A DNA stretch of 64,000 bases, taken from the NCBI GenBank assembly GCA_943354605.1, contig CALRCK010000003.1:14902-78901 (forward strand). The letters run 5' to 3'. Made by a program: the position numbers and the translations under genes. Within the stretch, counting starts at the first letter, position 1; each line of letters opens with the position of its first letter. This document shows, piece after piece, positions 1 to 63,306 of this stretch. The stretch is from Candidatus Uhrbacteria bacterium. Lineage in GTDB: Bacteria; Patescibacteriota; Patescibacteriia; UBA9934. Below the pieces are notes generated by a model. That model had not been told where the DNA came from. It ran no database searches and saw only the letters and a program-made list of their open reading frames with translations.

Positions 1-66
1 CGAGAGACCCTTCACTTCGTTCAGGGTGACGTATCCCGAGATTCAAGCGTCAATATCGTACCACGC

Positions 67-1898: not shown

Positions 1899-4733
1899 TT
1901 ATTTCCCATGACACTTCTTGAACTTCTTTCCACTTCCACAATGACATGGCTCGTTTGGACGAGGGTCCTTTGATGTGACGCTCTGGATCCCCGCCTGCGC
2001 GGGGATGACGGAGTCTGAAGGAATAGTGGCAGGATTCGATTCCTTCTTTTCTGCAGGCACATCAATCACTGTTGTTCCGCCGGAGGATTGTTGGGAGAGG
2101 AATTGAACGGCGTTGCGCATGAGCTGAGGAGCAGCTTCGAAGACGGCTTTTGCAGCGAGCTGTTGATCAATAATCTTGAAGAGGTTGTACGCCACTTCGC
2201 GGCCGAGTTCGGAGCGCATCGTGTTGTAGAGGCGGTAAGACTCGCGTTTGTATTCCACCAGCGGATCACGTTGAGCGTAGCCTTGAAGGCCGATAGTGCG
2301 GCGCAGGTACGTCATGTCATCAAGATGCTGCATCCAAAGTGTGTCGTTGGCGCGCAGCAAAATATTGCGTTCAAGCGCCATGAGATGTTTTGCATCGCCG
2401 AATTTTTCTACGGCACCGTCGTATGCGCGGCGAATCGCGCCGTTCACAATTTCAATGACGTGGCTACGCTGATGTGCGAGCTTTTCTTTATCAATGGAAA
2501 GCACCGAAAGCTCTTCACGAATCGCGGAAGACTCTGCGTCTTCGAGCTTCACGATTGCGCTCAAGCTCTCCACAATTTCCTGCGGATCCCAATCCGGCTT
2601 GCCCGTCGCCTCATCCTCAACGAAATCTTTTGGCACGTCGGCCTCTGCTTTGCTCGTATGGAAAAACACCACACGCTCAATTTCCTTTTCAATAATGGAA
2701 TGGACGAGCTCATGCGCCTTTGCTTCGCTCTTCATCACTTCTTTACGCTCGTTGTACACGGCGGTGCGATGCTTGTTCAGCACGTCGTCGTATTCCAACA
2801 CGTGCTTGCGGGTATCAAAGTGATGTCCTTCCACGCGTTGCTGAGACTTTTCGAGCGCACGCGTCACCATCTTGCTTTCGATTGGCGTGGAGTCGTCAAT
2901 GCCAAGTTTGTCCATCATCCCCTTCACGCGATCACTCCCGAAGATACGCATCAAATCGTCGTCGAGTGACACAAAGAATTGCGTGCTGCCCGGATCACCC
3001 TGACGGCCAGCGCGTCCGCGAAGCTGATTGTCGATGCGGCGCGATTCGTGGCGCTCGGTGCCGATCACGTGCAACCCGCCAAGTTTCTTCACATCCTCTG
3101 CCATTGCCGCATCCACCGGGTTTCCACCAAGCAAAATGTCCACGCCACGACCAGCCATGTTCGTTGCGAGAGTGACGGCACCCTTCCGACCAGCCTGCGC
3201 GATAATTTCACCTTCACGCTCGTGATTCTTTGCGTTCAACGTGTTGTGAACAATTCCCGCAGCAGTTAAAAACTTCGAAAGCGCCTCATTCTTCTCAATG
3301 GAAACGGTTCCGATGAGAACTGGTTGTCCGATTTCATTTAGGCGCTTCACCTCCTCAACCACCGCCATCCACTTCCCCATTTCATTTTTGTAAATACGGT
3401 CCGGCAAATCTTTACGTTTTGCTTCGTGGTTCGTTGGAATGGTGACGACGTCGAGCTTGTAAATCTTCGAAAACTCCTCCGCCTCTGTGGAAGCCGTTCC
3501 GGTCATGCCGGAAAGCTTTTCGTACATGCGGAAATAGTTTTGGAACGTAATCGTTGCGAGCGTCTTACTTTCACGCTGAATTTTCACGCCTTCTTTTGCT
3601 TCGATTGCTTGATGCAGACCTTCCGAATACCGGCGACCCTCCATGATGCGGCCAGTGAATTCGTCGACGATCACCACGTCGCCGCCACGAACCACGTAAT
3701 CGCGATCAATCTTAAACAACGAATGCGCCTTCAACGCTTGTTCCGCATGATGCACCATGGCAAGGCCTTCCTCGTACAAATTTTTCACGTTCAGCAAACG
3801 CTCCAACTTCTGCAAACCATTTTCGGTAAACGTGGAGACGCGCATCTTTTCGTCAATGTTGAAATCTTCACCCTCAACACAATGTTTGATGACGTCGGCG
3901 AAACGATAATACAAGTCTGCCGATTCCTGTGCCGCAGCAGAAATAATCAGCGGCGTGCGGGCTTCGTCGATGAGAATGGAGTCCACCTCGTCAACAATCG
4001 CGTAGTGTAATCCGCGTTGCACCACATCCTCAGCACGGCTCGCCATGTTGTCGCGCAAGTAATCAAAACCAAACTCGTTGTTTGTTCCATATGTAATGTC
4101 TGCAGCGTACGCTTCCGATCGCGACACTGGACGAAGCGAATCCGATGCAACGTGGAATCCCGCAACCGTCTCAGCACCTTCTGCTGGAGCTTCGACCTTA
4201 AAGTCTGCGTCGTACACGTAGCCACTTTCGTGCTGAATGCATCCAACGGTTAACCCAAGCGATGCAAACACGCGGCCCATCCATACAGAGTCGCGCTTTG
4301 CCAAGTAGTCGTTCACTGTTACCAAGTGCACGCCCTTTCCGGTGAGCGCGTTCAAATACGTTGGCGCGGTTGCGGTGAGTGTCTTTCCTTCACCCGTGCG
4401 CATTTCTGCGATCGAACCGCGATGCAACGTGAGTCCGCCCATCATCTGTACATCAAAATGACGCTGCCCCAGCACACGCTTGCTCGCTTCACGAACAACA
4501 GCAAACGCCTCATGCGCCATGGAATCGAGCGATTCACCGTTTGCGAGCCGCTCGCGGAACGCTTGTGTTTTCGCCTGTAACTCGTCGGCAGAAAGCGTTT
4601 TGAGGCCATCTTCAAAGGCGGCGATTTTCTCTGCATCTTTCCTGAGATTCTTCACTATTTTTGCGTTAGGATCACCGAAAATCGTGGAAAGGGAGAAGGC
4701 CATAGATGGCCAAATTATGCCTGATCTTCGCAA
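1899..4733 (-). CDS. secA: preprotein translocase ATPase SecA
   Basis: 944 aa. DEAD-like motor motifs (GEGKT, DEVDSILIDEARTPLIIS), SecA preprotein cross-linking and wing/scaffold regions, C-terminal zinc finger CHCGSGKKFKKCHGK. Contains an in-frame palindromic repeat insertion at 1983..2009. Confidence 0.97.
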   Translation of the reverse strand: MRRSGIIWPSMAFSLSTIFGDPNAKIVKNLRKDAEKIAAFEDGLKTLSADELQAKTQAFRERLANGESLDSMAHEAFAVVREASKRVLGQRHFDVQMMGGLTLHRGSIAEMRTGEGKTLTATAPTYLNALTGKGVHLVTVNDYLAKRDSVWMGRVFASLGLTVGCIQHESGYVYDADFKVEAPAEGAETVAGFHVASDSLRPVSRSEAYAADITYGTNNEFGFDYLRDNMASRAEDVVQRGLHYAIVDEVDSILIDEARTPLIISAAAQESADLYYRFADVIKHCVEGEDFNIDEKMRVSTFTENGLQKLERLLNVKNLYEEGLAMVHHAEQALKAHSLFKIDRDYVVRGGDVVIVDEFTGRIMEGRRYSEGLHQAIEAKEGVKIQRESKTLATITFQNYFRMYEKLSGMTGTASTEAEEFSKIYKLDVVTIPTNHEAKRKDLPDRIYKNEMGKWMAVVEEVKRLNEIGQPVLIGTVSIEKNEALSKFLTAAGIVHNTLNAKNHEREGEIIAQAGRKGAVTLATNMAGRGVDILLGGNPVDAAMAEDVKKLGGLHVIGTERHESRRIDNQLRGRAGRQGDPGSTQFFVSLDDDLMRIFGSDRVKGMMDKLGIDDSTPIESKMVTRALEKSQQRVEGHHFDTRKHVLEYDDVLNKHRTAVYNERKEVMKSEAKAHELVHSIIEKEIERVVFFHTSKAEADVPKDFVEDEATGKPDWDPQEIVESLSAIVKLEDAESSAIREELSVLSIDKEKLAHQRSHVIEIVNGAIRRAYDGAVEKFGDAKHLMALERNILLRANDTLWMQHLDDMTYLRRTIGLQGYAQRDPLVEYKRESYRLYNTMRSELGREVAYNLFKIIDQQLAAKAVFEAAPQLMRNAVQFLSQQSSGGTTVIDVPAEKKESNPATIPSDSVIPAQAGIQSVTSKDPRPNEPCHCGSGKKFKKCHGK
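1983..2009. repeat. family-1 palindromic element (GGATCCCCGCCTGCGCGGGGATGAC) inserted in frame in secA (encodes VIPAQAGIQ)
   Basis: 8-bp stem ATCCCCGC/GCGGGGAT around a 4-nt centre; same element at 17447, 43260, 56382, 56422, 62755. Confidence 0.8.
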
Positions 4734-10516: not shown

Positions 10517-10526
10517 AACTCCTCAG

Positions 10527-10617
10527 TCATTGCGAGCGTAGCGACTTGTCCCACGGAGGGGGAAGCAATCTCGGTGAACCTGGATTGCCGCGTCGGGATT
10601 ACCCTCCTCGCAATGAC
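10527..10617. repeat. family-2 nested palindromic element (GTCATTGCGAG...CTCGCAATGAC)
   Basis: Terminal inverted repeats GTCATTGCGAG/CTCGCAATGAC enclose nested pairs GGAGGG/CCCTCC and GCAATC/GATTGC; lies between glyA and folD. Related copies at 38234 and 58322. Confidence 0.6.
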
Positions 10618-10634: not shown

Positions 10635-11477
10635 ATGACCGAAATTCTCAACGGAAAAATTCTCGCGAAAACCATTCGCGACAAAGCAAAGCTCCGCGTG
10701 GAAGCTATGGAGGCTCCTCCGGGGCTTGCGGTGATTTTGATTGGTGAGAATCCTGCGTCGCAATTGTATGTTCGCCTCAAAATGGAAGCAGCGAAAGACG
10801 TTGGTATTTACGTTGAACGCCACGAATGCCCGGCAGACATCAGCACAGCAGACGCGATCACAAAAGTTCAAGAACTCAACGAGCGCAACGACATTCACGG
10901 AATTTTGGTGCAGCTGCCGCTTCCTGGCGAGCAGGATACCGACGCCATCATCAGTGCAATCATGCCAATCAAAGACGTGGACGGCTTTCACGCAGAGAAC
11001 CGTCGGCTGCTTCTTGCAAGCACGCCAAACCTTGTTCCACCAACCGCGCTTTCGCTCATGCGACTCATTCAAGCAACACGCATTCCGCTTCGCGGAAAAA
11101 CTGCAGTCATTCTTGGAAACTCACACATTTTCGCCGAACCAATCATCGAATTGCTTCGCGATGCCGGCGTCACGGCAACATTTGTTCCAAAAGACACCGA
11201 AGGTCTTGCCGCAATTACCCGAGCCGCCGACATCCTCATCGTTGCCGTAGGCATCGCGAACTTCGTCACCGCAGACATGGTCAAACCATCCGCCGTCGTC
11301 CTCGACGTTGGCGCCAATAAATCTGGCGACAAAACCATCGGCGACGTCTCAGAAACCGTCATCGGCCACGCCGGATTCCTCTCCCCCGTCCCCGGCGGCG
11401 TTGGTCCACTCACCGTGGCGTATCTTTTACTGAACGTCATCAAAGCGATGGAGCTGCAGGAACGGCTGAGGGGGTAA
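10635..11477 (+). CDS. folD: bifunctional methylenetetrahydrofolate dehydrogenase/cyclohydrolase
   Basis: 280 aa; N-terminal ILNGK, YVRLK catalytic lysine region, GILVQLPLP, C-terminal NAD(P)-binding domain GKTAVILGNS. Confidence 0.95.
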   Translation: MTEILNGKILAKTIRDKAKLRVEAMEAPPGLAVILIGENPASQLYVRLKMEAAKDVGIYVERHECPADISTADAITKVQELNERNDIHGILVQLPLPGEQDTDAIISAIMPIKDVDGFHAENRRLLLASTPNLVPPTALSLMRLIQATRIPLRGKTAVILGNSHIFAEPIIELLRDAGVTATFVPKDTEGLAAITRAADILIVAVGIANFVTADMVKPSAVVLDVGANKSGDKTIGDVSETVIGHAGFLSPVPGGVGPLTVAYLLLNVIKAMELQERLRG

Positions 11478-16679: not shown

Positions 16680-18764
16680 TTATACTTGATGACGTCCTTG
16701 CGCCTTCTTTCGAGGTTTCTTCTTACCCATACCCGTCAACTCTTTACTGAGCATCGCAATCTCGTCTCGGAGAATCGCCGCGGTTTCGAATAAAAGGTTT
16801 GCCGCAGCGTTATCCATCTCAATTTCCTTCTCGCGAATCGCTTCCTCAATCTCCATTGGCGTTGCACTGATTTCGATATCGAGAATCTTCGACGTGTCGG
16901 CATCGAAATTCCGATCAAGTTCCGCACGAATATCCTTAATGGTCTTGATGATGGTCTGCGGTGTGATGTTGTGTACAACGTTGTACGCGATTTGAATGTT
17001 TCGACGGCGTTCGGTTTCCTTCAGCGCCCGGTCGAGCGATCCGGTCATCTTGTCCGCATACAAAACAACTAAACCGTTCACGTTACGCGCAGCGCGACCG
17101 ATCGTTTGGATGAGCGAGGTCTCCGATCGAAGGAACCCTTCCTTATCTGCATCGAGCACGCCAATAAGCGAAACTTCTGGAAGATCGAGGCCCTCACGAA
17201 GAAGGTTTACGCCAACCACAACGTCGTACGCACCGCGACGAAGCTCCGAAAGAATCGTGATTCGATCAAGCGTTTCAACATCGGAATGCAAGTACGCCAC
17301 CTTCATGCCACCTTCCTTGAGGTACGTCGCCAAATCCTCGGCCATTTTCTTTGTGAGTGTCGTCACGAGCGCGCGTTCGCCTTTCGTTACGCGGTCTTTG
17401 ATACGTTCGATGATATCGGCAACTTGGCCGGGATATTCAGACGCCGCTGGATCCCCGCCTTCGCGGGGATGACCAGAAACTGATGAGGCCGTCACTGGCA
17501 ACACCAGCGTCTCAGGATCGACTAATCCCGTTGGACGAATAATCTGCTCAACAATGTTCTGCGACGTTTCTTTTTCAACAACACCCGGCGTTGCCGAAAC
17601 ATAAACGGCTTGACCGATCGTTTCATCGAACTCCTGGTACGTCAGTGGCCGATTATCCTTCGCACTTGGTAGTCGGAAACCGAAATCCACCAACGTCTGC
17701 TTTCGTGCCTGGTCGCCCGCAAACATTCCACCAATCTGCGGAAGCGTGACGTGCGATTCGTCGATAATCGTCAAAAAGTCTTTCGGGAAATACGACAGCA
17801 GCGTGTGCGCCGGTTCACCAATACGTCGGCCGTCGAAATGGCGAGAGTAATTTTCAATGCCGCTGCAGTATCCAACGTTCCGGATCATCTCAATGTCGTA
17901 TCGTGTGCGGCGCATTAAGCGTTCCGATTCTAACAGCTTCCCTTCTTTTTCGAATTCCTTTAATCGATCAGCAAGCTCTGCCTCGATGTCGCGGATGGCG
18001 CGTTCGCGTTCGGTGCTGTCGGACATAAAGTGCTTTGCTGGGAAAAACCATGCGTCTTCGTTCTGCACGATAATCTTTCTCGTCACTTTATTCAACGCAA
18101 AAATTTCACGTACCGCATTGCCCTCGATGACGATGCGGTACACCGTTTCATCGCTTGGCGGCATCACCTCGATAACGTCGCCGTTTGCGCGGAAATGTCC
18201 ACGAGTCAGGTCCGCATTCGTTCGTTCGTATTGCATCGCCACAAGTTGGCGAAGAAACTCTGCGCGGTCGATACGGTCGTTGACGCGCAAATGAAGCACC
18301 TCGCGCTTGTACGCTTCCGGCGAACCCAAACCATAAATACAGCTCACCGATGCGACCACAATGACATCACGACGGGAAAGCAACGATTGCGTTGCTGCGT
18401 GGCGAAGACGATCAATTTCCTCGTTAATCTGTGCGTCCTTTTCAATATACGTATCGGTTCGCGGCATGTATGCCTCTGGCTGGTAGTAGTCGTAATACGA
18501 AACGAAATACGACACCGCATTCTCCGGGAAAAACTCCCGGAATTCGGAGCACAGCTGTGCGGCAAGTGTTTTGTTGTGCGCAATCACCAAGGTCGGCTTC
18601 TGCACGTTCTGAATAACGTTTGCCATCGTAAACGTCTTTCCCGAACCCGTAACCCCAAGCAACGTCTGCCGGTGCAGGCCGTCGTTGATGCCATCGGTGA
18701 GATCTGAGATGGCTTTCGGCTGATCACCGGCTGGCTGGTATTTGGATACGAGGTTGAACGACAT
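16680..18764 (-). CDS. uvrB: excinuclease ABC subunit B
   Basis: Start reassigned to MSFNLVSKYQPAGDQPKAI (canonical UvrB N-terminus). Helicase motifs (GVTGSGKT, DESH), beta-hairpin, C-terminal UVR domain. Contains an in-frame palindromic element at 17447..17473 encoding SGHPREGGDP. Confidence 0.95.
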   Translation of the reverse strand: MSFNLVSKYQPAGDQPKAISDLTDGINDGLHRQTLLGVTGSGKTFTMANVIQNVQKPTLVIAHNKTLAAQLCSEFREFFPENAVSYFVSYYDYYQPEAYMPRTDTYIEKDAQINEEIDRLRHAATQSLLSRRDVIVVASVSCIYGLGSPEAYKREVLHLRVNDRIDRAEFLRQLVAMQYERTNADLTRGHFRANGDVIEVMPPSDETVYRIVIEGNAVREIFALNKVTRKIIVQNEDAWFFPAKHFMSDSTERERAIRDIEAELADRLKEFEKEGKLLESERLMRRTRYDIEMIRNVGYCSGIENYSRHFDGRRIGEPAHTLLSYFPKDFLTIIDESHVTLPQIGGMFAGDQARKQTLVDFGFRLPSAKDNRPLTYQEFDETIGQAVYVSATPGVVEKETSQNIVEQIIRPTGLVDPETLVLPVTASSVSGHPREGGDPAASEYPGQVADIIERIKDRVTKGERALVTTLTKKMAEDLATYLKEGGMKVAYLHSDVETLDRITILSELRRGAYDVVVGVNLLREGLDLPEVSLIGVLDADKEGFLRSETSLIQTIGRAARNVNGLVVLYADKMTGSLDRALKETERRRNIQIAYNVVHNITPQTIIKTIKDIRAELDRNFDADTSKILDIEISATPMEIEEAIREKEIEMDNAAANLLFETAAILRDEIAMLSKELTGMGKKKPRKKAQGRHQV
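17447..17473. repeat. family-1 palindromic element (CTGGATCCCCGCCTTCGCGGGGATGAC) inserted in frame in uvrB
   Basis: Same stem ATCCCCGC/GCGGGGAT as the other copies; read here in a different frame from secA and GT1. Confidence 0.8.
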
Positions 18765-23025: not shown

Positions 23026-23051
23026 TGTACGGCTTAATTCTGGTGACACTT

Positions 23052-23175
23052 TAGAACTTTCTCATTTTAGGCTAGTTTCGGCGCGCAAGGAGCAAAGTTC
23101 GCGAGGCGTACTCATGGTACGGCGAGCGAGTTTGCAACAAAGCAAGCCGAAAATAGTCAAAATGAGGAAGTTCTA
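23052..23175 (+). ncRNA. candidate structured RNA, copy A (family shared with 61031..61158)
   Basis: 124-nt element closed by a 17-bp helix TAGAACTTTCTCATTTT / AAAATGAGGAAGTTCTA. Conserved core blocks AGTTTCGGCGCGC, GGCGTACTCATGGTACGGCG and AGCAAGCCGAAAAT are shared with copy B. 5' TTTCGGC pairs with 3' GCCGAAA. Ends 8 nt upstream of tRNA-Trp. Strand inferred from co-orientation with the tRNA. Confidence 0.5.
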
Positions 23176-23183
23176 AGACATGA

Positions 23184-23257
23184 AGGGGCGTCGTATAATG
23201 GTAGTACAACGGTCTCCAAAACCGTTAGCGTGGGTTCGATTCCCCCCGCCCCTGCCA
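23184..23257 (+). tRNA. tRNA-Trp (anticodon CCA)
   Basis: Cloverleaf: acceptor AGGGGCG/CGCCCCT, anticodon arm ACGGT-CTCCAAA-ACCGT, T-loop TTCGATT, discriminator G, encoded CCA. One U-C mismatch in the T stem. Confidence 0.85.
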
Positions 23258-24751
23258 CGAGAGACGGTCATCGCAAGGTGACCGTTTTTCGATTGCAAAA
23301 TACGGTTGTTTCAGCGAAAAAATCGGCTCTCCGTCCGTAAGTTTCGAGTTCGATAGTAAAAACTGTGCCAATTCCCGTTTTTCGTCAGGAGTGGCTTCTT
23401 TCGCCAGTTTCTCGGCGTTTTCTGCGAGTTCCAAAATCCTACAGCCGAATTGGTAATAACTGATGTCAGCGCGGTTGTGTTTCGCCATGCGGACTTCAAG
23501 ACTTTCGAGCTGCTTGGTGTAGTCGGCAAACTTCGCATCGTAAAAGCTCTCGGTGATTTTCTTATCGAGGCGGTCTTCGTACAATGCGTCGATACGCTTC
23601 TTGAGGCGCGTCTGGTCAGCGACAAGGCTCTCGAAAGCCTTATCCTCCCCCTCGCGCTTCTGCGACAGCGACTGCTTGAGTGCGGCGGTTACAAACGCAA
23701 CGCCTGCATCGCTGATTTTCAGGATGTTCGTCAGCTTGTCGAAACGTTCGTCGATTGTTTCTTCTTTGACCCACGGCTGGTCGCAGTTCGTGTTGTACTT
23801 GGTGCAATGGTAGTAGTTGTAACGACCCTTCGCCTTCTCTGCGGTAATCGACCGAGCGCATACGCCGCAAGTAAACATTCCCTTGTACGCAAACGGCATG
23901 ACGTTATGCTCTTTGCGCATATTCAAATTGCGCCCGCTGATGACGTCTTGCACTTTTGCCCACAGCTCCGAGGCAATAAGAGGCTCGTATGAGCCTTGTA
24001 TCATCTTGCCGTTCCACTCAAACCTCCCAACGTAGAACGTATTGACGAGGCAACGCTGCACCGTGGAAACATACAGCTTACCGCTCTTGATGACGGGTGG
24101 GAGGTTGAGCGTCAGCCCTTCGGCTTCGAGCTTGGTAATAAGTGACTTCATCGAGTAAATGCCCGAGGCGTAGTACTCAAACATTTTGACGATGAGTTGG
24201 CGGTTCGCAGGGTCAGGAATGACGATGTTGTGTTTGGGGTTGAGCGGGTCTTTCGCGTTGAGGTAGCCAAGGGGAGCTTGGCGCGGATATTCTCCGTGCG
24301 AGATTTTGATGTCAAAACCCTTTTTTACTTCCTCCTTGAGGTTGTCGATAAAACCCTTCGCCAATACAGTCTTGAGGCCGTGCATGAGTTTGTCCGACGC
24401 GCGGCTGTCTTTTCCGATAGAGCCGCCCTCTTTCACCAGCCAAACGGTCACACCGAAATTGTCGGTCAGTTCTTCGATAGCGACGTAGTCCGTAAAGTTG
24501 CGATGGAGGCGGTCGGTCTTTTCGACGAGAATGTGCTTGATGTCCTTTGCTTTGACGTAGGCCAGCATCGCGGCGAACTCCTTGCGTCGGCTGTCCTTGG
24601 CCGTCTCTGCCTCCTCAAACTCTTTTGCGACCTCAAAGCCGTTACGACGAGCAAAGTCGTAGAGAGCAACGCGCTGTGCCTCGGGGGAGAAGCCCTGCTC
24701 GGCCTGCTCCTTGCTCGACACACGGACGTACATGACGGCTTTCTTGAGCAT
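23225..24751 (-). CDS. large serine recombinase (integrase)
   Basis: Start at MLKKAVMYVRVSSKEQ (resolvase/invertase catalytic serine motif). Recombinase domain, zinc ribbon CGVCARS...YYHC, long coiled coil. The last 11 codons (...GESNPR) overlap the 3' 33 nt of tRNA-Trp, as in tRNA-inserted integrative elements. Confidence 0.85.
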   Translation of the reverse strand: MLKKAVMYVRVSSKEQAEQGFSPEAQRVALYDFARRNGFEVAKEFEEAETAKDSRRKEFAAMLAYVKAKDIKHILVEKTDRLHRNFTDYVAIEELTDNFGVTVWLVKEGGSIGKDSRASDKLMHGLKTVLAKGFIDNLKEEVKKGFDIKISHGEYPRQAPLGYLNAKDPLNPKHNIVIPDPANRQLIVKMFEYYASGIYSMKSLITKLEAEGLTLNLPPVIKSGKLYVSTVQRCLVNTFYVGRFEWNGKMIQGSYEPLIASELWAKVQDVISGRNLNMRKEHNVMPFAYKGMFTCGVCARSITAEKAKGRYNYYHCTKYNTNCDQPWVKEETIDERFDKLTNILKISDAGVAFVTAALKQSLSQKREGEDKAFESLVADQTRLKKRIDALYEDRLDKKITESFYDAKFADYTKQLESLEVRMAKHNRADISYYQFGCRILELAENAEKLAKEATPDEKRELAQFLLSNSKLTDGEPIFSLKQPYFAIEKRSPCDDRLSWQGRGESNPR

Positions 24752-24753
24752 AT

Positions 24754-25377
24754 CTATAGATGAGAGACGGCAACCATCATTGAAATCGTCAGTACAGCTA
24801 TTCCGAACCCGAAGGTGAGAAAGCAAGCGTACTGCAAGAATGCCTTTACGCTTACGGCAAATGCATTTTTTCCGTCGAGCTCATCGCACAACTTTTTGTC
24901 ATTGGCCAAGTATTCAGCTTCTTGCGCGGCGTATGCTTCCTTGCTACCGCCTCCCGTGAGCACGACAGTAAGACCAGTACCGAGATACTGGATTTTTGCT
25001 TGGCGTAAACGCTGACGCTTCTTGAGCCATTCCGTAGCGGCAGTCCAGTAAATATGCCGAGCATTGAACCAACGAACAAATAGTCCGCTAATAAACGCGG
25101 TGAGCATCAATGACCAGGCTACAAACAATGTGTATTTCAAGGGATGACCAAGAAAAATTGCATCGAATGGCCTGCTCGTTGCGTTTGCTACTGAGCCAAC
25201 AAAGGTAAGGCTCAATGAAATAATCGCGGCGGAATACAAGGTAATCTTTTCCGAGACTTCCACGAGGTCTTTATTTACATTTATTTGCGTCAGGTCGAAA
25301 TGCGTTGCGGCCTTGCTCAATGCATCGCTACTTTGCGACATTTCCGCGTGAACAGCAGTCGGGTTGAAGTCCGTCAT
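24754..25377 (-). CDS. hypothetical membrane protein (element cargo)
   Basis: 207 aa with 3-4 hydrophobic helices; stop abuts the integrase start. Confidence 0.4.
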   Translation of the reverse strand: MTDFNPTAVHAEMSQSSDALSKAATHFDLTQINVNKDLVEVSEKITLYSAAIISLSLTFVGSVANATSRPFDAIFLGHPLKYTLFVAWSLMLTAFISGLFVRWFNARHIYWTAATEWLKKRQRLRQAKIQYLGTGLTVVLTGGGSKEAYAAQEAEYLANDKKLCDELDGKNAFAVSVKAFLQYACFLTFGFGIAVLTISMMVAVSHL

Positions 25378-25391
25378 AGATTGCTTTCATT

Positions 25392-26573
25392 TTATATTAT
25401 CTCCTCATCAATAGCGACCCCGAGTATCGCCTCGAGCTTCTTGGGGAGGACAGGACAGAAGGCTGCGAGTTTGCGCTGTAAGTACGGCACAATGCCGACA
25501 ACGTCCTTCTTTGCCTCGGCCTTCGCGAGGATGTTTTCGACCGCTTTTTTGTACCGTGTCACGGTTGCGGGTGAAGCTTCGCGTTTCAGCTCCTCAATAG
25601 CAGTCTTGAGGCCGTGGTCACGGACACGATGCGCGAGGTAGTAAAGAATAGCGCGGTCGCGGAAGTCGTCCGCATACTCCCCGATGAGGCGTTGTAGTTC
25701 GGTATTCTTGAGGTCGCTCAAACGAACAAGGCGGTTGAAGTCTTTGACGTACACGTTCTCGAACGTTCGTACGAGTACCTTCTTTGCTATGTCAGCCTTC
25801 GCTGCTTCTTGCAGGGTGTACCCCTTCTTTTTTATGGCGGCGGAAAATTGCCGCAAGGTCGCGTCTACGGTCTGTCTCTTTTGTAACGATAGCTCGATGC
25901 GGAGTGCGCCCTTTGTCCATTTGCCCGCCTTGTACTGCCGCGCAATTTCTTGTTCGAGCTGCGTCTTGCCATTGGTCGCGATTTCATCGAACTTGTCGTA
26001 CAAAACAAAACCTTGCGAGGAGTTGTAGTACTTCAAGTAAAAACCGTCCTTCCCGTCGTGATAATCGCGTCGGTTGAAGTCCGAAGACTGCTTCATGTCA
26101 TACGGCATCAGCGCACGGAGCATTTGTGCCGTCGTCCCGAAGCTCGGACTGATTTGCAGGATTTTCGAGTAGTCTATGCGGTACACGATAGCTCCCAACA
26201 CATCCTCGGGCTTTACGCCGACTTTGATTTCTTTGAGTGCATCGACGAGCTTCTTGGCGACGAGGGGGAGCAAACGTTCGTCCATATCGAAGATGCTTGC
26301 CCCGAACAGGAGTTTGGGGAGTGATACTTGCACGACGAGCTGACGCTCCGAAGGCACCATGCCGCGTTTGGTGCGCCGTGAACGTTCGGTAATATGTACC
26401 TGTGGGAAATACTTCCCCTCGGCCTTGCAACGCTGTGGGTAGTCCGTGTAGCGCGTGGTGAAGCGTCCGAAGACGCCGTACTTGCCTTTGAGCTCCTGAT
26501 GCTGCGCCTTGGTGAAGAACTCGTCGGAGTACGTCACGAAGTTCGTAATGTGAATGGTGACGCTGTCTATCAT
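25392..26573 (-). CDS. putative replication initiation protein (Rep_trans-like)
   Basis: 393 aa; the FVLYDKFDEI (YDK) motif and overall size fit rolling-circle Rep_trans initiators of phage and integrative elements. Assignment from motif memory only. Confidence 0.4.
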   Translation of the reverse strand: MIDSVTIHITNFVTYSDEFFTKAQHQELKGKYGVFGRFTTRYTDYPQRCKAEGKYFPQVHITERSRRTKRGMVPSERQLVVQVSLPKLLFGASIFDMDERLLPLVAKKLVDALKEIKVGVKPEDVLGAIVYRIDYSKILQISPSFGTTAQMLRALMPYDMKQSSDFNRRDYHDGKDGFYLKYYNSSQGFVLYDKFDEIATNGKTQLEQEIARQYKAGKWTKGALRIELSLQKRQTVDATLRQFSAAIKKKGYTLQEAAKADIAKKVLVRTFENVYVKDFNRLVRLSDLKNTELQRLIGEYADDFRDRAILYYLAHRVRDHGLKTAIEELKREASPATVTRYKKAVENILAKAEAKKDVVGIVPYLQRKLAAFCPVLPKKLEAILGVAIDEEII

Positions 26574-26740
26574 ACGAGTTGGGGCTTGGCTTTTATGCGG
26601 GTGTCGATGCGGAGCAATACCTCAAAGGCTCCGAGCAGATTTCTTGCTGCGTCGGGTATTTCTTCAGGGGCGAGGCCAAGCTCGTCCACGAAGTAGCGTT
26701 GCGCCAATTCTTCGAGGTTGGGTTCATCTTCGGGCAACAT
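26570..26740 (-). CDS. small hypothetical protein translationally coupled to the Rep-like gene
   Basis: 56-codon ORF (MLPEDEPNLEELAQRYFVDELGL...) whose TGA overlaps the Rep ATG (ATGA). Absent from the track because it is under 60 aa. Confidence 0.3.
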   Translation of the reverse strand: MLPEDEPNLEELAQRYFVDELGLAPEEIPDAARNLLGAFEVLLRIDTRIKAKPQLV

Positions 26741-26803
26741 AAAAGCTCCGAGCCGTAATATCAGCCGTGACAGGCTGTATAGACGCGGAGCTGTGGGTTG
26801 ATT

Positions 26804-26832
26804 ATTGAACGCACGACAAGTTCGTTCTATAA
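26804..26832 (+). promoter_or_regulatory. near-consensus sigma-70 type promoter TTGAAC-17-TATAAT
   Basis: TTGAAC at 26804..26809, 17-bp spacer, TATAAT at 26827..26832. Points rightward into a hairpin plus T-tract at about 26877..26912, suggesting a very short transcript or an antisense RNA against the ImmA gene 3' end. Confidence 0.4.
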
Positions 26833-26900
26833 TGCCCGTGGGTAGTAGCTTTCGCGTTTACGCAGCTATTATTGATAAGCCGTCTGTTTGCGCAGGCGGT

Positions 26901-27539
26901 TTATTGTTTTTGTAGGCTGTAGTCAGATACGCAGATTTCCATCATTTTCACAGATACCGCGAACTCAGTTGCGAGGCTACGGATCACCCATCGGTCATCG
27001 TGTTCGATAGCACGGGCGTATGCGCGTTTCAGTACTGGGTACGGAGCGAGGTAGTACGATGCGGTGATTTCCGCAACGCGCTCAATGATGTTCTGTCGCT
27101 CGACGGGGTCGGCTATGGCTTCCATGTCGGCCATGAACTCCCCATCAAACCGCTGAAGGATATGGGCGAACTCATGAGCGATGGTGAAGCGTTGACGTTC
27201 GCGTGGTACATCGTTTGCGACAAAAATGCGGATAGTACCCTCGTCCACGATGTCGTACATTCCGTCGATGTTCAGGCCGTGCTCGGTGGGGTTGAACGGA
27301 TAGTACTCAAACAAGAAGCCGTTGAGATACTGTGACATGGGTGCGAAGTTGATGGGGACACTCACCGTGTCGGCGTTCATGAATACCTTGTGCACGATGT
27401 CACGGAAGTGATGTTTCCACTTCTTTACCTTCTCCATGTAGAGCGGGCTGCATTGTCCATATCGTGGTCGCTGACGTGTCTTTTTGCGTAATACATACGC
27501 GCACGTTTCATCGGGAAGCTCGGGAGTAGTCGGGTTCAT
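26901..27539 (-). CDS. ImmA/IrrE family zinc metallopeptidase
   Basis: 212 aa with FTIAHEFAHIL, the HEXXH motif in the COG2856/DUF955 (ImmA/IrrE) context. Confidence 0.75.
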   Translation of the reverse strand: MNPTTPELPDETCAYVLRKKTRQRPRYGQCSPLYMEKVKKWKHHFRDIVHKVFMNADTVSVPINFAPMSQYLNGFLFEYYPFNPTEHGLNIDGMYDIVDEGTIRIFVANDVPRERQRFTIAHEFAHILQRFDGEFMADMEAIADPVERQNIIERVAEITASYYLAPYPVLKRAYARAIEHDDRWVIRSLATEFAVSVKMMEICVSDYSLQKQ

Positions 27540-27545
27540 ACGTTT

Positions 27546-28409
27546 TTACTCCAAGGCTTTGGGTTCCTCGGGCTTCGGGATGAAGTTATCAGGGGTAATA
27601 ACCGACTTTCCTGTGACGTCTTCGATTTCTTTTCGGGCATTGCCTGCGATACTCGCGCCCTTTTGTGCAGCCGCATGATTTGCATCAAATCCGTTCGCAT
27701 CGGCGTTTCGTGCGATTTCCGCAGTACTTGCCTCTGCAAGCATATTGATAACGAGCTCAAGCGGTGACATATGGTCACGCAGGTTTTCATCCGTCAGGTT
27801 CTTGAACTCTTTGTACTGACGGGTTGTCTTACCTGACCAACCTTTGTAAATGTCGTTCGTGAGGATTGCGTAGCCGTAGCCTTCGATGCCACGTTTTCGC
27901 CATTCGTTCGTGAGCTCGTTGCGCACTTCAATCGTGCGGAGACGACGACTAATCCATTCGTCGTCATAGCCTTTGCGGGCGTATGTGCCAAGGGCACGAT
28001 GAATGCCTTTTTCAGGGTCTTTGATTTCCTCGATACGCTCGAAGCCGACCCGCGCAAGCCATTGCTTGATGGGCTCTGCCTTGGGCGATGGGACGCTCTG
28101 AATGACACGGAGCAGGGTCTCCGTATCGGTACACTCGGTCGAGCGTTTTTTGCCATCCTTCGCGGTGAACTTCAACTTTACGATTTTCTCGTAAAGTTCA
28201 AATCCCTCCTCTTTGAGCTTGGCTTTGAGGTCGTTCCAGTAGCGGCTCGGAACGCTGCTTTCGGTGATGATGCCAACAACGTCGATGACGCTGAAGTACC
28301 ATTTCTCGGCTTCGGGGTTCCAGCGGCGACGAACGTCCCTATCCTCAAAGCGAATAATGGAAAGGTCGTTATCTGACGCTTGCGGTGGCTGGGTAGTAGT
28401 GTCGGCCAT
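27546..28409 (-). CDS. Bro-N / DinD-like (DNA-damage-inducible protein D family) protein
   Basis: Start at MADTTTQPP...; N-terminal LSIIRFEDRDVRRRWNPEAEKWYFSVIDVV resembles the Bro-N domain, and the overall layout resembles DinD. The ATG is 2 nt downstream of the XRE gene stop. Confidence 0.5.
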   Translation of the reverse strand: MADTTTQPPQASDNDLSIIRFEDRDVRRRWNPEAEKWYFSVIDVVGIITESSVPSRYWNDLKAKLKEEGFELYEKIVKLKFTAKDGKKRSTECTDTETLLRVIQSVPSPKAEPIKQWLARVGFERIEEIKDPEKGIHRALGTYARKGYDDEWISRRLRTIEVRNELTNEWRKRGIEGYGYAILTNDIYKGWSGKTTRQYKEFKNLTDENLRDHMSPLELVINMLAEASTAEIARNADANGFDANHAAAQKGASIAGNARKEIEDVTGKSVITPDNFIPKPEEPKALE

Positions 28410-28410
28410 A

Positions 28411-28758
28411 CTATTTCTTGGTCTTGCGCTTGCTCTCCAAATAATTGACGTGACCAACGATTTCGTTGATTTCGTCAGGGGAGAAGCTGCGCTGACGCAA
28501 TGCGTTTGCGAGCATCTGCGTAGCGTTCGGTGTTGAATTATCATCGAGAAGGCCAACAGCGGCGAGGAAGTCCCTGAATGTCATTCCAAGCCCTTCTGCA
28601 AGCTGTTTGCTCTTGTCGATGGAGAGTGTCTTGTAGAGCCCTGCCTCAAGTTTCGATATAAACCCAACGGAAATGTCTGCGCGACGTGCAAGCTCGTTTT
28701 GTGACAAGCTGTTTTGCTCGCGTAGTTCTTTGAGACTCTTGTGAAGTGGTTTCGTCAT
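28411..28758 (-). CDS. XRE-family helix-turn-helix transcriptional regulator
   Basis: HTH LSQNELARRADISVGFISKLEAG. Together with the downstream ImmA protease it forms a classic ImmR/ImmA-like switch. Confidence 0.75.
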   Translation of the reverse strand: MTKPLHKSLKELREQNSLSQNELARRADISVGFISKLEAGLYKTLSIDKSKQLAEGLGMTFRDFLAAVGLLDDNSTPNATQMLANALRQRSFSPDEINEIVGHVNYLESKRKTKK

Positions 28759-28979
28759 AAAATACATTCATTCGTTTACGTCTCGACCCTGCGTTTTGCT
28801 ACATACGCGTCGATGATAAGAGTTACCGATGCATATTGTACTCTTTGCTATTTCCTATAGTCAATAGCACTATGCGATTTGTGTTGATACAAAGCTTTCT
28901 TGAATACAAAGAGCGCACCGACGGGCTGCGCTCGATGCAACGATTGAACGTTGAGAGCGTAGCCGCGCCGATGCGCGAG

Positions 28980-38225: not shown

Positions 38226-38233
38226 TGGTCTCA

Positions 38234-38305
38234 GTCATGCTGAGCAAGGCGAAGCATCTCCGCAGGGAGATCCCGACGAAGATTCTTCGCTTTGCTCAGA
38301 ATGAC
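38234..38305. repeat. family-2 nested palindromic element (GTCATGCTGAGCAAGGCGAAG...CTTCGCTTTGCTCAGAATGAC)
   Basis: Terminal inverted repeats with two mismatches plus inner palindrome ATCTCC-GCAG-GGAGAT; sits just after the stop of the preceding gene. Confidence 0.6.
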
Positions 38306-43227: not shown

Positions 43228-43259
43228 GTTTTCATCTAACTCAGCCATTATCTTTTTCA

Positions 43260-43286
43260 GTCATCCCCGCGAAGGCGGGGATCCAG
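43260..43286. repeat. family-1 palindromic element (GTCATCCCCGCGAAGGCGGGGATCCAG), intergenic
   Basis: Opposite orientation relative to the secA, uvrB and GT1 copies. Confidence 0.8.
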
Positions 43287-47794: not shown

Positions 47795-47919
47795 GTGGGA
47801 CGAACCTATTTGGCCAATTTTGGGCTTGCAGCATCGAAAACTTTTTCAACGTACTGTGAAGTACGTCTCAAAAGCTTTTCTCGCCACGCACCCAAACTTG
47901 ACGCAAATAGCTTCGTCCC
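47795..47919 (-). ncRNA. structured spacer RNA candidate in the tRNA cluster, with tRNA-like acceptor stem and 3' ACCA but no cloverleaf
   Basis: Minus-strand sequence begins GGGACGA and ends TCGTCCCACCA (7-bp acceptor-like helix plus CCA). Inner stacked helices CTATTTG/CAAATAG, TTTGGG/CCCAAA, perfect hairpin ACGTACT-TCAC-AGTACGT and palindrome AAAAGCTTTT. Not a canonical tRNA. Confidence 0.3.
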
Positions 47920-47940
47920 ACAGTCACGCTCAATTTTTCA

Positions 47941-56368: not shown

Positions 56369-56381
56369 ATTTTTTCATTCA

Positions 56382-56448
56382 GTCATCCCCGCGTAGGCGG
56401 GGATCCATCATTCCGAACGGTCTGGATCCCCGCCTACGCGGGGATGAC
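56382..56448. repeat. two inverted family-1 palindromic elements forming a composite hairpin
   Basis: GTCATCCCCGCGTAGGCGGGGATCC (56382..56406), a 15-nt spacer, then CTGGATCCCCGCCTACGCGGGGATGAC (56422..56448); intergenic between tpiA and the M16 peptidase gene. Confidence 0.8.
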
Positions 56449-56461
56449 CAGAACAAACGGA

Positions 56462-57748: not shown

Positions 57749-58288
57749 TTAAATGGTGGTGATTTCTTTCTCCTTCTTGTCGCCCATCTCTTCAATCTTT
57801 GCCGTAAATTCTTTCACGGTCTTTTCGAGCAACTCTTCAAGACGACGTTTTTCGTCTTCACCACCCTCAAGCTTGCCCATCGCCTTTCGCGTTTCTTCAC
57901 GAACGCGGCGGACTTGCACGCGAGCGTCTTCCAATTTTTCTTTTGCAAGCTTCACCATTTTCAAACGCGTTTCTTCCGTCATCATTGGCATCGTGAGACG
58001 AAGCGACTTCCCATCAACAACGGGGTTAATTCCCACATCGCTCTTCACAATTGCGGATTCGATGAGCTTCACCACGCTCGCATCCCACGGCTCGATGAGG
58101 ATGGTCTTCGCATCTGGCGTGGTGATGGTTGCGAGCGCCTTGATAGGCTGCAACGCGCCATATGCCTCAACCTGAACCGGTTCAAGAATAGCCGCAGAAG
58201 CACGGCCAGTACGGATAGCCCCAAGCTCGTTCACGAGGTGCTCAAGTACTTTGGCAAACTGCGGTTTGGTATCGTCGATAATGGACAT
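57749..58288 (-). CDS. frr: ribosome recycling factor
   Basis: Start at MSIIDDTKPQFAKVLEHL; canonical RRF three-helix bundle sequence. The longer track ORF runs into the upstream repeat element. Confidence 0.9.
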   Translation of the reverse strand: MSIIDDTKPQFAKVLEHLVNELGAIRTGRASAAILEPVQVEAYGALQPIKALATITTPDAKTILIEPWDASVVKLIESAIVKSDVGINPVVDGKSLRLTMPMMTEETRLKMVKLAKEKLEDARVQVRRVREETRKAMGKLEGGEDEKRRLEELLEKTVKEFTAKIEEMGDKKEKEITTI

Positions 58289-58321
58289 AGAGGAAAATAC
58301 TTTCTGCGTAAAACGATCGTC

Positions 58322-58401
58322 AGTCATGCTGAGCGAAGGCGAAGTATCTCTCGCAGGTTACACTGATCACCTACGGAGATTCCTCGCCTACGCTCGGAAT
58401 G
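58322..58401. repeat. family-2 nested palindromic element (GTCATGCTGAGCGAAGGCGAAG...CGCTCGGAATGAC)
   Basis: Same termini and architecture as 38234..38305; sits in the frr 5' leader. Confidence 0.6.
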
Positions 58402-58520
58402 ACGAAACAGTCGTCCACGGACCTATTCGCCTCATATTTTAACCCAATCACCACGCACCGTCAACGCGGTGCGTGGTGATATTTTGCGAACTTCTGCGAA
58501 ATTTCCGTGTGGATTCGCGT

Positions 58521-61030: not shown

Positions 61031-61158
61031 AGAGAACCTTCCCAGTTTAGTCCAGTTTCGGTGCGCGACGAAGATTGGATCGTCAAGGCGTACTTCATGG
61101 TACGCCGTCGATACAATCGAGGAGCAAGCCGAAAATGGGCAAACTGGGAAGGTTCTCT
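61031..61158 (+). ncRNA. candidate structured RNA, copy B (family shared with 23052..23175)
   Basis: 128-nt element closed by a perfect 18-bp helix AGAGAACCTTCCCAGTTT / AAACTGGGAAGGTTCTCT. Conserved core blocks AGTTTCGGTGCGC, GGCGTACTTCATGGTACGCCG and AGCAAGCCGAAAAT are shared with copy A. Four helix positions differ from copy A, all compensated. Confidence 0.5.
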
Positions 61159-62166: not shown

Positions 62167-63306
62167 TTACCGAATAGCGACGGCGCGTCGCAACGCTTTC
62201 CAAGTTTCTGCCGCGGTAGCTTCCCACGAAAATTTCTGTGCCTGTATAAATCCACGGGAACGATATTCTTCTCGCTTTTCGGTATCAACCATCAACACGA
62301 GCGCCGCCGACAGCGCAGCCACATCGTTCGGCGACACCAAAACCGCCGCTTGTCCGCACACCTCGCGCATCACGGCAATATTCGACGCAATCACCGGCGC
62401 GCCATGTTCCATCGCCTCAAGAACAGGAATACCGAATCCTTCAGCCACCGACGGGAACGCAAAGCACATTGCATGCGCAAGAAGCTTCGATGCATCGTGG
62501 TCGGAAATGTATCCGGGGAGGCGAACCGAATCTGCAATTTTCTCTTCGGCAATTGCGCGACGGATGTCTGCCTCGCCATAGCCAAACGATCCCGCAAGCA
62601 CTAACACATACGGGCTCCCCGCGCCGTACTTGCGTTTCAACGCCGCAAATGCACGGATGAGGAGAACCGTGTTTTTCTTTTTCTCCAAACGGCTGATCGA
62701 AAGAATGTATTGTCCGGAAGTGATCTGTAATTTACGCAAGAGGTCTGAAGCCTGCTGGATCCCCGCCTGCGCGGGGATGACGGAAAGGGTAGGCGCGAGC
62801 GGCGTGACAACAATCCGATCGGATGCAACGTGATAGTGCGATTCAAGGTCGGCTTTCGTGGCGTTCGATGGCGTCAGTAAAACTTTGGCTCGCCGAATGG
62901 CATTCTGCACTGCAAGCTCTTGCCGCTGACGCGAGGCCGGATCGTAGACTTGAGGATTCATCGCGAATGCAACGTCGTGGATGGTGGTGACGACCGGAAT
63001 CGATTTCGGTGCAAGCAAAGAAATTTCATGTGCAGGAACAAATACCACGCTTGGCCGATGCATCATAAGTTCGAACCCAAGCCGAAAGTGTGTCCAGCCT
63101 TTTGGAAGAAAAAACGGGAGAACTTTCCAGGACCAACCTTGCGGGAGATCGATCCCAGCCGGAATCGAACGAACGTACAACAGGACGTTCTCATCAGCTT
63201 CGAGCGGCATTTTCATCATCGCACTCAATAAAAAATACACGTAACGCTCAACGCCAGTCGGATTCAATCGTGTCAGCGCATTCGCATCAATGCCGTATGT
63301 TTTCAT
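62167..63306 (-). CDS. glycosyltransferase family 1 (GT4-type, GT-B fold)
   Basis: 379 aa; C-terminal nucleotide-sugar-binding motif (FAFPSVAEGFGIPVLEAMEHGAPVIASN). Contains an in-frame family-1 palindromic element at 62755..62781 encoding VIPAQAGIQ in the interdomain linker. Confidence 0.8.
   Translation of the reverse strand: MKTYGIDANALTRLNPTGVERYVYFLLSAMMKMPLEADENVLLYVRSIPAGIDLPQGWSWKVLPFFLPKGWTHFRLGFELMMHRPSVVFVPAHEISLLAPKSIPVVTTIHDVAFAMNPQVYDPASRQRQELAVQNAIRRAKVLLTPSNATKADLESHYHVASDRIVVTPLAPTLSVIPAQAGIQQASDLLRKLQITSGQYILSISRLEKKKNTVLLIRAFAALKRKYGAGSPYVLVLAGSFGYGEADIRRAIAEEKIADSVRLPGYISDHDASKLLAHAMCFAFPSVAEGFGIPVLEAMEHGAPVIASNIAVMREVCGQAAVLVSPNDVAALSAALVLMVDTEKREEYRSRGFIQAQKFSWEATAAETWKALRRAVAIR
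62755..62781. repeat. family-1 palindromic element (CTGGATCCCCGCCTGCGCGGGGATGAC) inserted in frame in the GT1 gene
   Basis: Identical 27-mer to the secA copy; translated as VIPAQAGIQ in both host genes. Confidence 0.8.

Follow-up and report, generated by a model that had tools for sequence, protein, structure and literature searches.

GTCAT…ATGAC palindromes of a Candidatus Uhrbacteria genome as probable miniature relatives of Ssn nuclease cassettes

Described hairpin repeats and the enzymes that accompany them

The Neisseria NTS repeat, CGTCATTCCCGCGMAVGCGGGAATCYRG, contains dRS3 and is bound as single-stranded DNA (ssDNA) by SsnA, a GIY-YIG protein of 94 residues (PMC11893778). SsnA cuts a few nucleotides 5' of the NTS; cleavage depends on the three bases that precede the palindrome, and binding on the C that immediately follows it (PMC11893778). 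Sites resembling the NTS, termed Ssn-related motifs (SRM), border ssn genes in a range of phyla (Chenal et al. 2025, Nat Commun, PMC11893778). Four enzymes were assayed by Chenal et al., all on NTS-like sites; nuclease activity and an effect on transformation were shown, and an IS-like origin was offered only as speculation (PMC11893778). A further group of repeats, the CGTC-tagged REPs (families CGTC-1 to -4), consists of hairpins whose stems start with AT and measure 8-9 bp, with loops of 4-5 nt and a tail that is mostly CCA (Di Nocera et al. 2013, PMC3733652). Dimers are frequent, some copies lie within genes such as uvrB (PMC3733652), and in no species do the repeats flank RAYT genes (Di Nocera, De Gregorio & Rocco 2013, PMC3733652). 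A search of the literature for the core sequences and for links between GIY-YIG enzymes and REPs returned these two studies as the only relevant ones. In 2013, CGTC-headed repeats were described as lacking a dedicated enzyme, and in 2025 Ssn was tied to one hairpin type (NTS/SRM).

Here we analysed a 64,000-nt stretch (the window) of contig CALRCK010000003.1 from a Candidatus Uhrbacteria bacterium, which carries two families of hairpin repeats with an oriented GTCAT head. Family 2, the GTCAT…ATGAC palindromes, resembles NTS/SRM in its unpaired (C/H)GTC head, its stem starting with AT and the C after the stem. The organization is also alike, with units that occur singly or in inverted pairs and bracket a single-domain GIY-YIG gene of ~90 residues. 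The hairpins themselves differ: NTS/SRM have a 7-9 bp stem and a 3-5 nt loop, compared to a 5-bp stem and an 11-31 nt GAG…CGA loop in family 2. The published SRM pattern, HGTCWYN(0-2)YYVSBRHN(0-5)WNVSBRGN(0-2)RNCYNB, matched none of the six family-2 arms in the window and none of the 628 family-2-type units in all loci. Moreover, none of the four enzymes assayed in PMC11893778 belongs to the …KGW.R.KK subclade that accompanies family 2.

Likenesses to the CGTC-tagged REPs include the CGTC head (on the right arms in the window), a stem that opens with complementary AT, a brief unpaired tail, the arrangement in dimers, the presence of copies within repair genes (uvrB, for instance), and the lack of association with RAYT genes. 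However, in family 2 the stems are 5 bp, the loops long and the tails mostly CTC, with CCA among the window arms only on the right arm of copy 1; its commonest head elsewhere is TGTC, and the left arms in the window have AGTC.

Two other systems share features of the overall architecture. In the REPIN/RAYT system, REP doublets reportedly go together with TnpA-REP, as Bertels and Rainey in 2011 and Nunvar et al. in 2010 are said to have described. Family 2 likewise comprises inverted doublets of an oriented hairpin, with many gene-less copies and one or a few that flank a cognate single-copy enzyme gene; the head in REPIN/RAYT is GTAG and the enzyme an HUH Y1 protein, whereas here the head is YGTC and the enzyme of the GIY-YIG type. 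The ends of IS200/IS605 elements and their miniature derivatives also have subterminal hairpins that differ between left and right and are recognised as ssDNA, without a classical terminal inverted repeat or target duplication, but no TnpA gene was called in the window and the 10 kb upstream, and a conserved target tetranucleotide is not established.

Anatomy, context and conservation of the family-2 elements

The preliminary description reported three palindromes that begin with GTCAT and end with ATGAC, and all three are present, with coordinates shifted by 1-2 bases. Copy 1 (10526-10617, 92 bp) lies in the glyA-folD spacer. Its left arm (10526-10572, plus strand) is composed of GTC, ATTGC, a 31-nt loop (GAGCGTAGCGAC…GGGGGAA), GCAAT and CTC, and its right arm (10579-10617, minus strand) of GTC, ATTGC, the 21-nt loop GAGGAGGGTAATCCCGACGCG, GCAAT and CCA. 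Copy 2 (38234-38305, 72 bp), located 3' of a 203-aa gene that is convergent with rplU, has the left arm ATGCT-GAGCAAGGCGA-AGCAT-CTC (38234-38260, plus strand) and the right arm ATTCT-GAGCAAAGCGA-AGAAT-CTT (38279-38305, minus strand). Copy 3 (58323-58403, 81 bp) sits between a promoter-like site (58464-58436, minus strand) and frr; its left arm, ATGCT-GAGCGAAGGCGA-AGTAT (58323-58350, plus strand), has one stem mismatch, and its right arm (58376-58403, minus strand) reads ATTCC-GAGCGTAGGCGA-GGAAT-CTC. A fourth dimer is cut by the window start, where its left arm GTCACCCTGAACGAAGTGAAGGGTCTC occupies 1..30 on the minus strand; the whole element lies at 11045-11127 of locus L208, and its spacer and right arm are common to copy 3. 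A fifth, at L208 17477-17547 on the same contig and 6 kb upstream, is found inside the 3' end of a pseudouridine-synthase gene call.

Each family-2 element is a tail-to-tail pair of oriented units, and in the window the two arms are separated by a 14-25 nt spacer that contains no gene. A unit runs from a YGTC head through a 5-bp stem starting with AT, an 11-31 nt GAG…CGA loop (the CGA end is usual) and the complementary stem to a C. All six window arms have the head [AC]GTCAT, and a C directly follows the stem in all six, with the tails CTC, CCA, CTC, CTT, CTC and CTC. Head and tail, the parts of its site on which SsnA depends, are both retained. A strict-unit finder, which demands GTC, a stem of at least 5 bp starting with AT, a loop of at least 8 nt starting with GAG and the complementary stem, detected five units in the window, compared to a mean of 0.08 and a maximum of two in 300 dinucleotide shuffles; the elements thus form a real dispersed family, as had been proposed. 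Alignment revealed that copies 2 and 3 and the fourth and fifth dimers match well, and so does their spacer CCTACGGAGATTC. Copy 1 is related more remotely and has only the architecture of head, stem and tail in common with the other copies.

The copies had been described as carrying terminal inverted repeats of 11-20 bp. Copy 1 has a perfect one of 11 nt (GTCATTGCGAG/CTCGCAATGAC), and copies 2 and 3 are self-complementary to 81% and 65%, respectively (ungapped). In copy 2, the stems differ between the arms, yet each arm is self-complementary; since the arms differ exactly in the stem, this element is not what selection for pairing between the arms of a plain inverted duplication would produce. 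The hairpin of the individual arm is the functional unit, and not only the long terminal inverted repeat. Folding of the whole elements as ssDNA gave z = -2.5, -5.8 and -6.1 for copies 1-3 against dinucleotide shuffles, and the full element favours the long arm-arm hairpin over the arm hairpins. A single arm folds weakly with standard DNA parameters, with a free energy near -3 kcal/mol and z near 0. It is thus covariation, and not thermodynamics, that supports the arm hairpin. The family-2 loops often hold GCGAAGC-like motifs, which reportedly form unusually stable DNA mini-hairpins, an observation ascribed to Hirao and co-workers; standard parameters may accordingly undervalue the arms.

The strong hairpins formed by the whole elements would also fit a role mainly at the RNA level, with selection at these sites for termination, attenuation or mRNA stability; copy 1 lies in an operon spacer, copy 2 in a 3' region and copy 3 in a 5' leader, and E. 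coli REPs are described as 3'UTR regulators in an excerpt of a bioRxiv preprint. We regard this role as unlikely. The terminator function suggested in the preliminary description was not borne out, as none of the three copies scores as an intrinsic terminator or is followed by a T-tract, and canonical terminators lie nearby. A search of the whole window against Rfam at the gathering threshold retrieved four tRNAs only and no family for the elements. The unit also occurs in phage structural modules, in coding regions and around ssn genes in many phyla, and is therefore not tied to any gene context. Furthermore, covariation within arms that differ from each other is needless for an RNA arm-arm hairpin, and Neisseria SsnA is inactive on RNA (PMC11893778). 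An RNA-level effect is possible as a secondary side effect. For the annotation of the window, the elements are better taken as selfish or host-tolerated repeats than as regulators specific to glyA, folD or frr.

One consequence for annotation is visible at copy 3. The proposal that such elements seed spurious ORFs finds an example in the deposited frr call (57749-58327, 192 aa), which starts at the ATG at 58325-58327 within the GTCAT head of copy 3. The conserved N-terminus suggests a true start at 58286-58288, so that copy 3 probably seeded a mis-annotated start. The family-2 repeats likewise explain a very common source of spurious small ORFs in metagenomes.

Comparison with related genomes revealed differences in presence and absence. 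In the closest available relative (83% FolD identity; L211-L213, including GCA_964815925.1), the glyA-folD spacer is 3 bp (glyA-TAG-CCT-ATG-folD), and units of either family are absent from 20 kb of synteny. A relative with 81% FolD identity (L214-L216) has a decayed orthologous copy of copy 1 between glyA and folD. The repeats are therefore lineage-specific and recently gained or lost, as expected of mobile or expanding repeats. Among the close relatives, the only GIY-YIG gene observed, in L212, was considered as a possible Ssn gene and rejected; it scores 29 bits against the Ssn HMM, is of another subfamily and lacks flanking units. A blastn search with copy 2 against plasmids gave no match.

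All three copies are flanked by TCA on the 5' side (TCAGTCAT) and by G[GA]A on the 3' side. The left heads in this genome, of either family, all read TCAGTCAT (10523-10530, 38231-38238, 58319-58327, 43256-43263, 56378-56385 and L208 17473-17481), two of them in the form GTCAGTCAT with a tandem GTCA, and the right heads read YCGTCAT. The TCA 5' of the left arms is specific to this genome; the L214 orthologue of copy 1 has the head CCGTCAT without TCA. Among the 628 family-2-type units, the base preceding GTC is T in 459, C in 131, A in 19 and G in 19, that is, T or C in 94% and A in 3%. The TCAGTCAT left heads could be a scar of cleavage or repair, a target preference or the outcome of homogenisation among copies. 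A target-site signature could not be established. With respect to the classical MITE criteria, inverted termini are present and no direct repeat flanks any copy. No insertion boundary or target duplication could be called at glyA-folD, at the uvrB insert or at the Azospirillum sufB-[ssn]-sufC site, the last compared with three empty-site relatives, as the adjacent spacer has diverged in all three places.

Association with Ssn genes and recurrence in public collections

A GIY-YIG sequence, used solely as a tblastn probe against plasmid records, matched genes annotated as ‘GIY-YIG nuclease family protein’. Among them is the N. gonorrhoeae SsnA orthologue of 94 residues, with Y6, Y17 and E64 as in PMC11893778. 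The NTS flanks this gene and a Photobacterium GIY-YIG gene, an Azospirillum ssn gene is flanked by dimers of exactly the 27-mer found as family 1 in the window, and the Planktothrix and Spirosoma GIY-YIG genes are flanked by dimers of the family-2 type, such as GTCATTCTGAGTGAAACGAAGAATCTC…ATGAC.

The surroundings of these cassettes vary. On plasmid AZO_p3 of A. lipoferum 4B (L126 1858-2474), the Ssn cassette sits between sufB and sufC, a site that is empty in A. ramasamyi and B510 and similarly shortened in a match from A. oryzae. The Spirosoma cassette lies between glycoside-hydrolase genes. The Planktothrix cassette lies between MmeI and DrmA, and its heads are tandemly reiterated (GTCATTCTGAGT…, three times).

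We then retrieved 80 Ssn loci of many phyla, with GIY-YIG genes of the cd10448 type, from GTDB genomes by alignment of real Ssn proteins; those tested match Pfam GIY-YIG. The 62 kb that lie no more than 400 bp from ssn contain 105 strict family-2 units, compared to 26 in the 366 kb farther off, an enrichment of about 24-fold. Strict units occur near ssn in 45 of the 80 loci and on both sides in 28, and NTS-type units occur in 10. With a broader unit definition, family-2-type units are found in 53 of the 80 loci and a match to the SRM pattern in only seven. The units are also oriented: relative to the gene strand, the nearest upstream unit is ‘+’ in 42 loci versus 11, and the nearest downstream unit is ‘-’ in 41 versus 15, with a median distance of 33-34 nt to ssn. 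A full GTCAT→[ssn]←ATGAC cassette is present in 32 of the 80 loci. Tail-to-tail dimers without a gene, 80 in all, are also present in the Ssn loci; their median length is 81.5 nt, compared to 72-92 nt in the window, and in 39 of these 80 the arms have different, individually self-complementary stems, like those of copy 2. The elements in the window are of this kind.

The type of hairpin follows the nuclease. Ssn proteins with the motif …W.R.WK have 12 NTS-type flanks and no family-2 flanks, and those with …W.R.[KR]K have at least 46 family-2 flanks and no NTS-type flanks. This sequence comparison points to two Ssn subclades, each with its own hairpin type, namely …KKW.R.WK with NTS-type and …KGW.R.KK with family-2 hairpins. 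Family 2 would accordingly be a distinct member of the Ssn-related repeats, as it has the same head and tail but a different hairpin, a nuclease subclade of its own and no match to the SRM pattern. Altogether, these results indicate that a second, structurally different hairpin type, entirely missed by the published pattern, is at least as common as NTS/SRM around the Ssn genes of Chloroflexota, Acidobacteriota, Ignavibacteria, Cyanobacteria, CPR lineages and Firmicutes and tracks its own nuclease subclade. It is also present on viral contigs. This adds candidate nucleases, with their sites, to those that may cut ssDNA sequence-specifically, and such enzymes are of interest as tools.

The units are conserved well beyond the ssn genes. 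An IMG/VR scan with GTCATNNNGAGCGNAGCGA, in which only the 5' half of the unit was constrained, matched at least 120 contigs. Among the matches listed, 96 of 134 distinct instances have the exact 5-nt complement directly after the loop or one base later; the complementing instances represent six stem types (TGC, TCT, CCT, CCC, TCC and GCT), the TGC class being shifted by one base. In 91 of 93 independent instances, again among the matches listed, the tail begins with C. The exact 2b-arm pattern had no match in IMG/VR. The viral contigs (L003-L122) commonly carry family-2-type units, often intergenic in head-morphogenesis modules with terminase, portal, capsid and head-tail connector genes, so phages may carry or spread the sites. 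At least 120 metagenome contigs carry window-like arms, and among the matches listed, two of 120 also carry an ssn gene, one flanked by family 2 and the other by NTS. This co-occurrence is compatible with many copies per gene and is no independent support for the association.

Chance palindromes or unrelated inverted repeats are a practically negligible explanation for the window elements. Copy 1 does resemble copies 2 and 3 only in head, tail and architecture; however, the count of strict units in the window far exceeds that in the shuffles, and the architecture recurs hundreds of times across three public collections. The shuffle counts and the stem complementarity in the listed IMG/VR instances led us to reject this explanation.

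A different question is which enzyme acts on the units. The preliminary description proposed one mobilisation mechanism for both families and named a RAYT- or IS200/IS605-like HUH enzyme as the candidate. One enzyme class for both remains reasonable, since the two families share the oriented GTCAT head, next to which it probably recognises the hairpin. The HUH candidate, on the other hand, was not recovered. Mobilisation of REPIN-like doublets by RAYT (TnpA-REP) or an IS200/IS605-type HUH Y1 transposase fits in concept, as an oriented unpaired head lies by a hairpin, the doublets are inverted, and the left and right arms are distinct like IS200/IS605 ends; Chenal et al. themselves drew the analogy (PMC11893778). 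We nevertheless judge it very unlikely. The head is YGTC and not GTAG, and CGTC repeats flank no RAYT gene in any species (PMC3733652). Gene calls with precomputed Pfam hits, which span the whole window and 10 kb upstream (~74 kb), include no Y1/HUH transposase (PF01797). When the neighbours of the 120 IMG/VR instances among the matches listed were clustered, only phage structural genes emerged, with no transposase and no enzyme candidate. Conversely, the gene bracketed by the units in 32-53 of the 80 loci encodes a GIY-YIG nuclease. By these sequence comparisons, the enzyme is most probably an Ssn-type GIY-YIG ssDNA nuclease and not a RAYT/IS200 HUH protein.

On this basis, we consider it probable that the family-2 elements are miniature, non-autonomous versions of the ssn cassette, in which the hairpin unit is a variant of NTS/SRM and CGTC-tagged REPs. 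What leads to this reading is that the ssn gene is replaced by a 14-25 nt spacer while the architecture is kept. By analogy with Neisseria SsnA, each arm would present its hairpin when the DNA becomes single-stranded during replication, transformation or repair. The cognate Ssn would then bind the hairpin and the 3' C, and cut only the strand that carries them, a few nucleotides 5' of the GTC head. The cognate ssn gene would presumably lie elsewhere in this genome.

A bolder extension, which we put forward only tentatively and with some doubt, is that the family-2 units are the cognate sites of the second Ssn subclade (…KGW.R.KK), and that GTCAT→[ssn]←ATGAC is an autonomous mobile element, with the nuclease driving the copying of the cassette and of gene-less two-hairpin miniatures via ssDNA intermediates. 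If true, GIY-YIG nucleases would have an equivalent of the RAYT/REPIN or IS200/IS605 systems, at work in phages and in many phyla. The family-2 repeats are a concrete system in which to ask whether a REPIN-like expansion of repeats can be driven by GIY-YIG nucleases.

The elements might alternatively be inert relics, that is, decayed remnants of past ssn cassettes or repeats on which no enzyme acts in this genome today. An HMM built from 82 Ssn proteins detected no ssn within about 84 kb of the contig. No GIY-YIG gene (PF01541) was called in the window and the 10 kb upstream, and GIY-YIG regex scans of the window and the listed IMG/VR loci returned nothing. Decay is also evident in the long, degenerate loops of copy 1, its still further decayed L214 orthologue and the stem mismatch of copy 3. 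Against this, copies 2-5 have intact heads, tails and self-complementary stems with near-identical segments in common, and all left heads have the homogenised form TCAGTCAT, as if copying or conversion had been recent. Inert relics are therefore, in our judgement, quite unlikely, and probable miniatures of a cassette whose nuclease may be encoded elsewhere remain our preferred interpretation of the family-2 elements.

Family-1 units and further repeats in the window

Family 1 is represented by six GTCATCCCCGCG[ACT]AGGCGGGGATCCAG units in the window, compared to none expected. It had been said to share the GTCAT…ATGAC termini of family 2; the unit heads are indeed oriented GTCAT, but among the sites of the six units only 56382-56448 is a GTCAT…ATGAC dimer. 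This tail-to-tail dimer of the NTS/CGTC-REP type (56381..56449) is composed of two GTCATCCCCGCGTAGGCGGGGATCCA units around a 15-nt spacer and forms a perfect palindrome with 26-nt arms. Its left unit matches the published SRM pattern, and a single arm folds at -9.7 kcal/mol (z = -5.0). The single unit AGTCATCCCCGCGAAGGCGGGGATCCAG (43259..43286, plus strand) is intergenic, and its 27-mer is identical to the units flanking the Azospirillum lipoferum ssn gene.

Three other single units, all on the minus strand, are intragenic. The one at 1983..2010 lies in frame within secA and encodes VIPAQAGIQ in the C-terminal linker; this insertion is also present in relative L214 and is absent from L211 and L217. 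The unit at 17447..17474 lies in frame within uvrB, in a 14-aa insert (…SGHPREGGDPAA…) that relatives lack, and the unit at 62755..62782 lies, likewise in frame, within a GT4 glycosyltransferase ORF (62167-63306). The in-frame intragenic units agree with the occurrence of CGTC REPs in repair genes (Di Nocera et al., PMC3733652). An 8-bp stem, a 4-nt loop and a CCA tail place family 1 among the CGTC-tagged REPs. The published SRM pattern matches four of the six units, the remaining two being preceded by G. Because of the match to NTS/SRM and the fit to the description of CGTC-tagged REPs, family 1 is of the already known NTS/CGTC-REP type.

A third repeat family consists of long hairpins of ~128 nt at 23051-23176, 47795-47921 and 61031-61158, with 18-nt outer arms that are 90-92 nt apart. 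It had no match in Rfam, and RNAalifold predicted 45 pairs, of which 15 show compensatory changes. Two of the three elements directly adjoin tRNA genes, one at tRNA-Trp and the other between the Tyr and Thr tRNAs. A small integrative element (23184-28760) also adjoins tRNA-Trp. It encodes a serine recombinase (23225-24751, minus strand), the 3' end of which overlaps the tRNA, as well as a Phage_CRI replication protein, a Bro-N protein and an M78 peptidase/HTH pair. In relative L211, a similar recombinase of 508 residues is encoded at another position.
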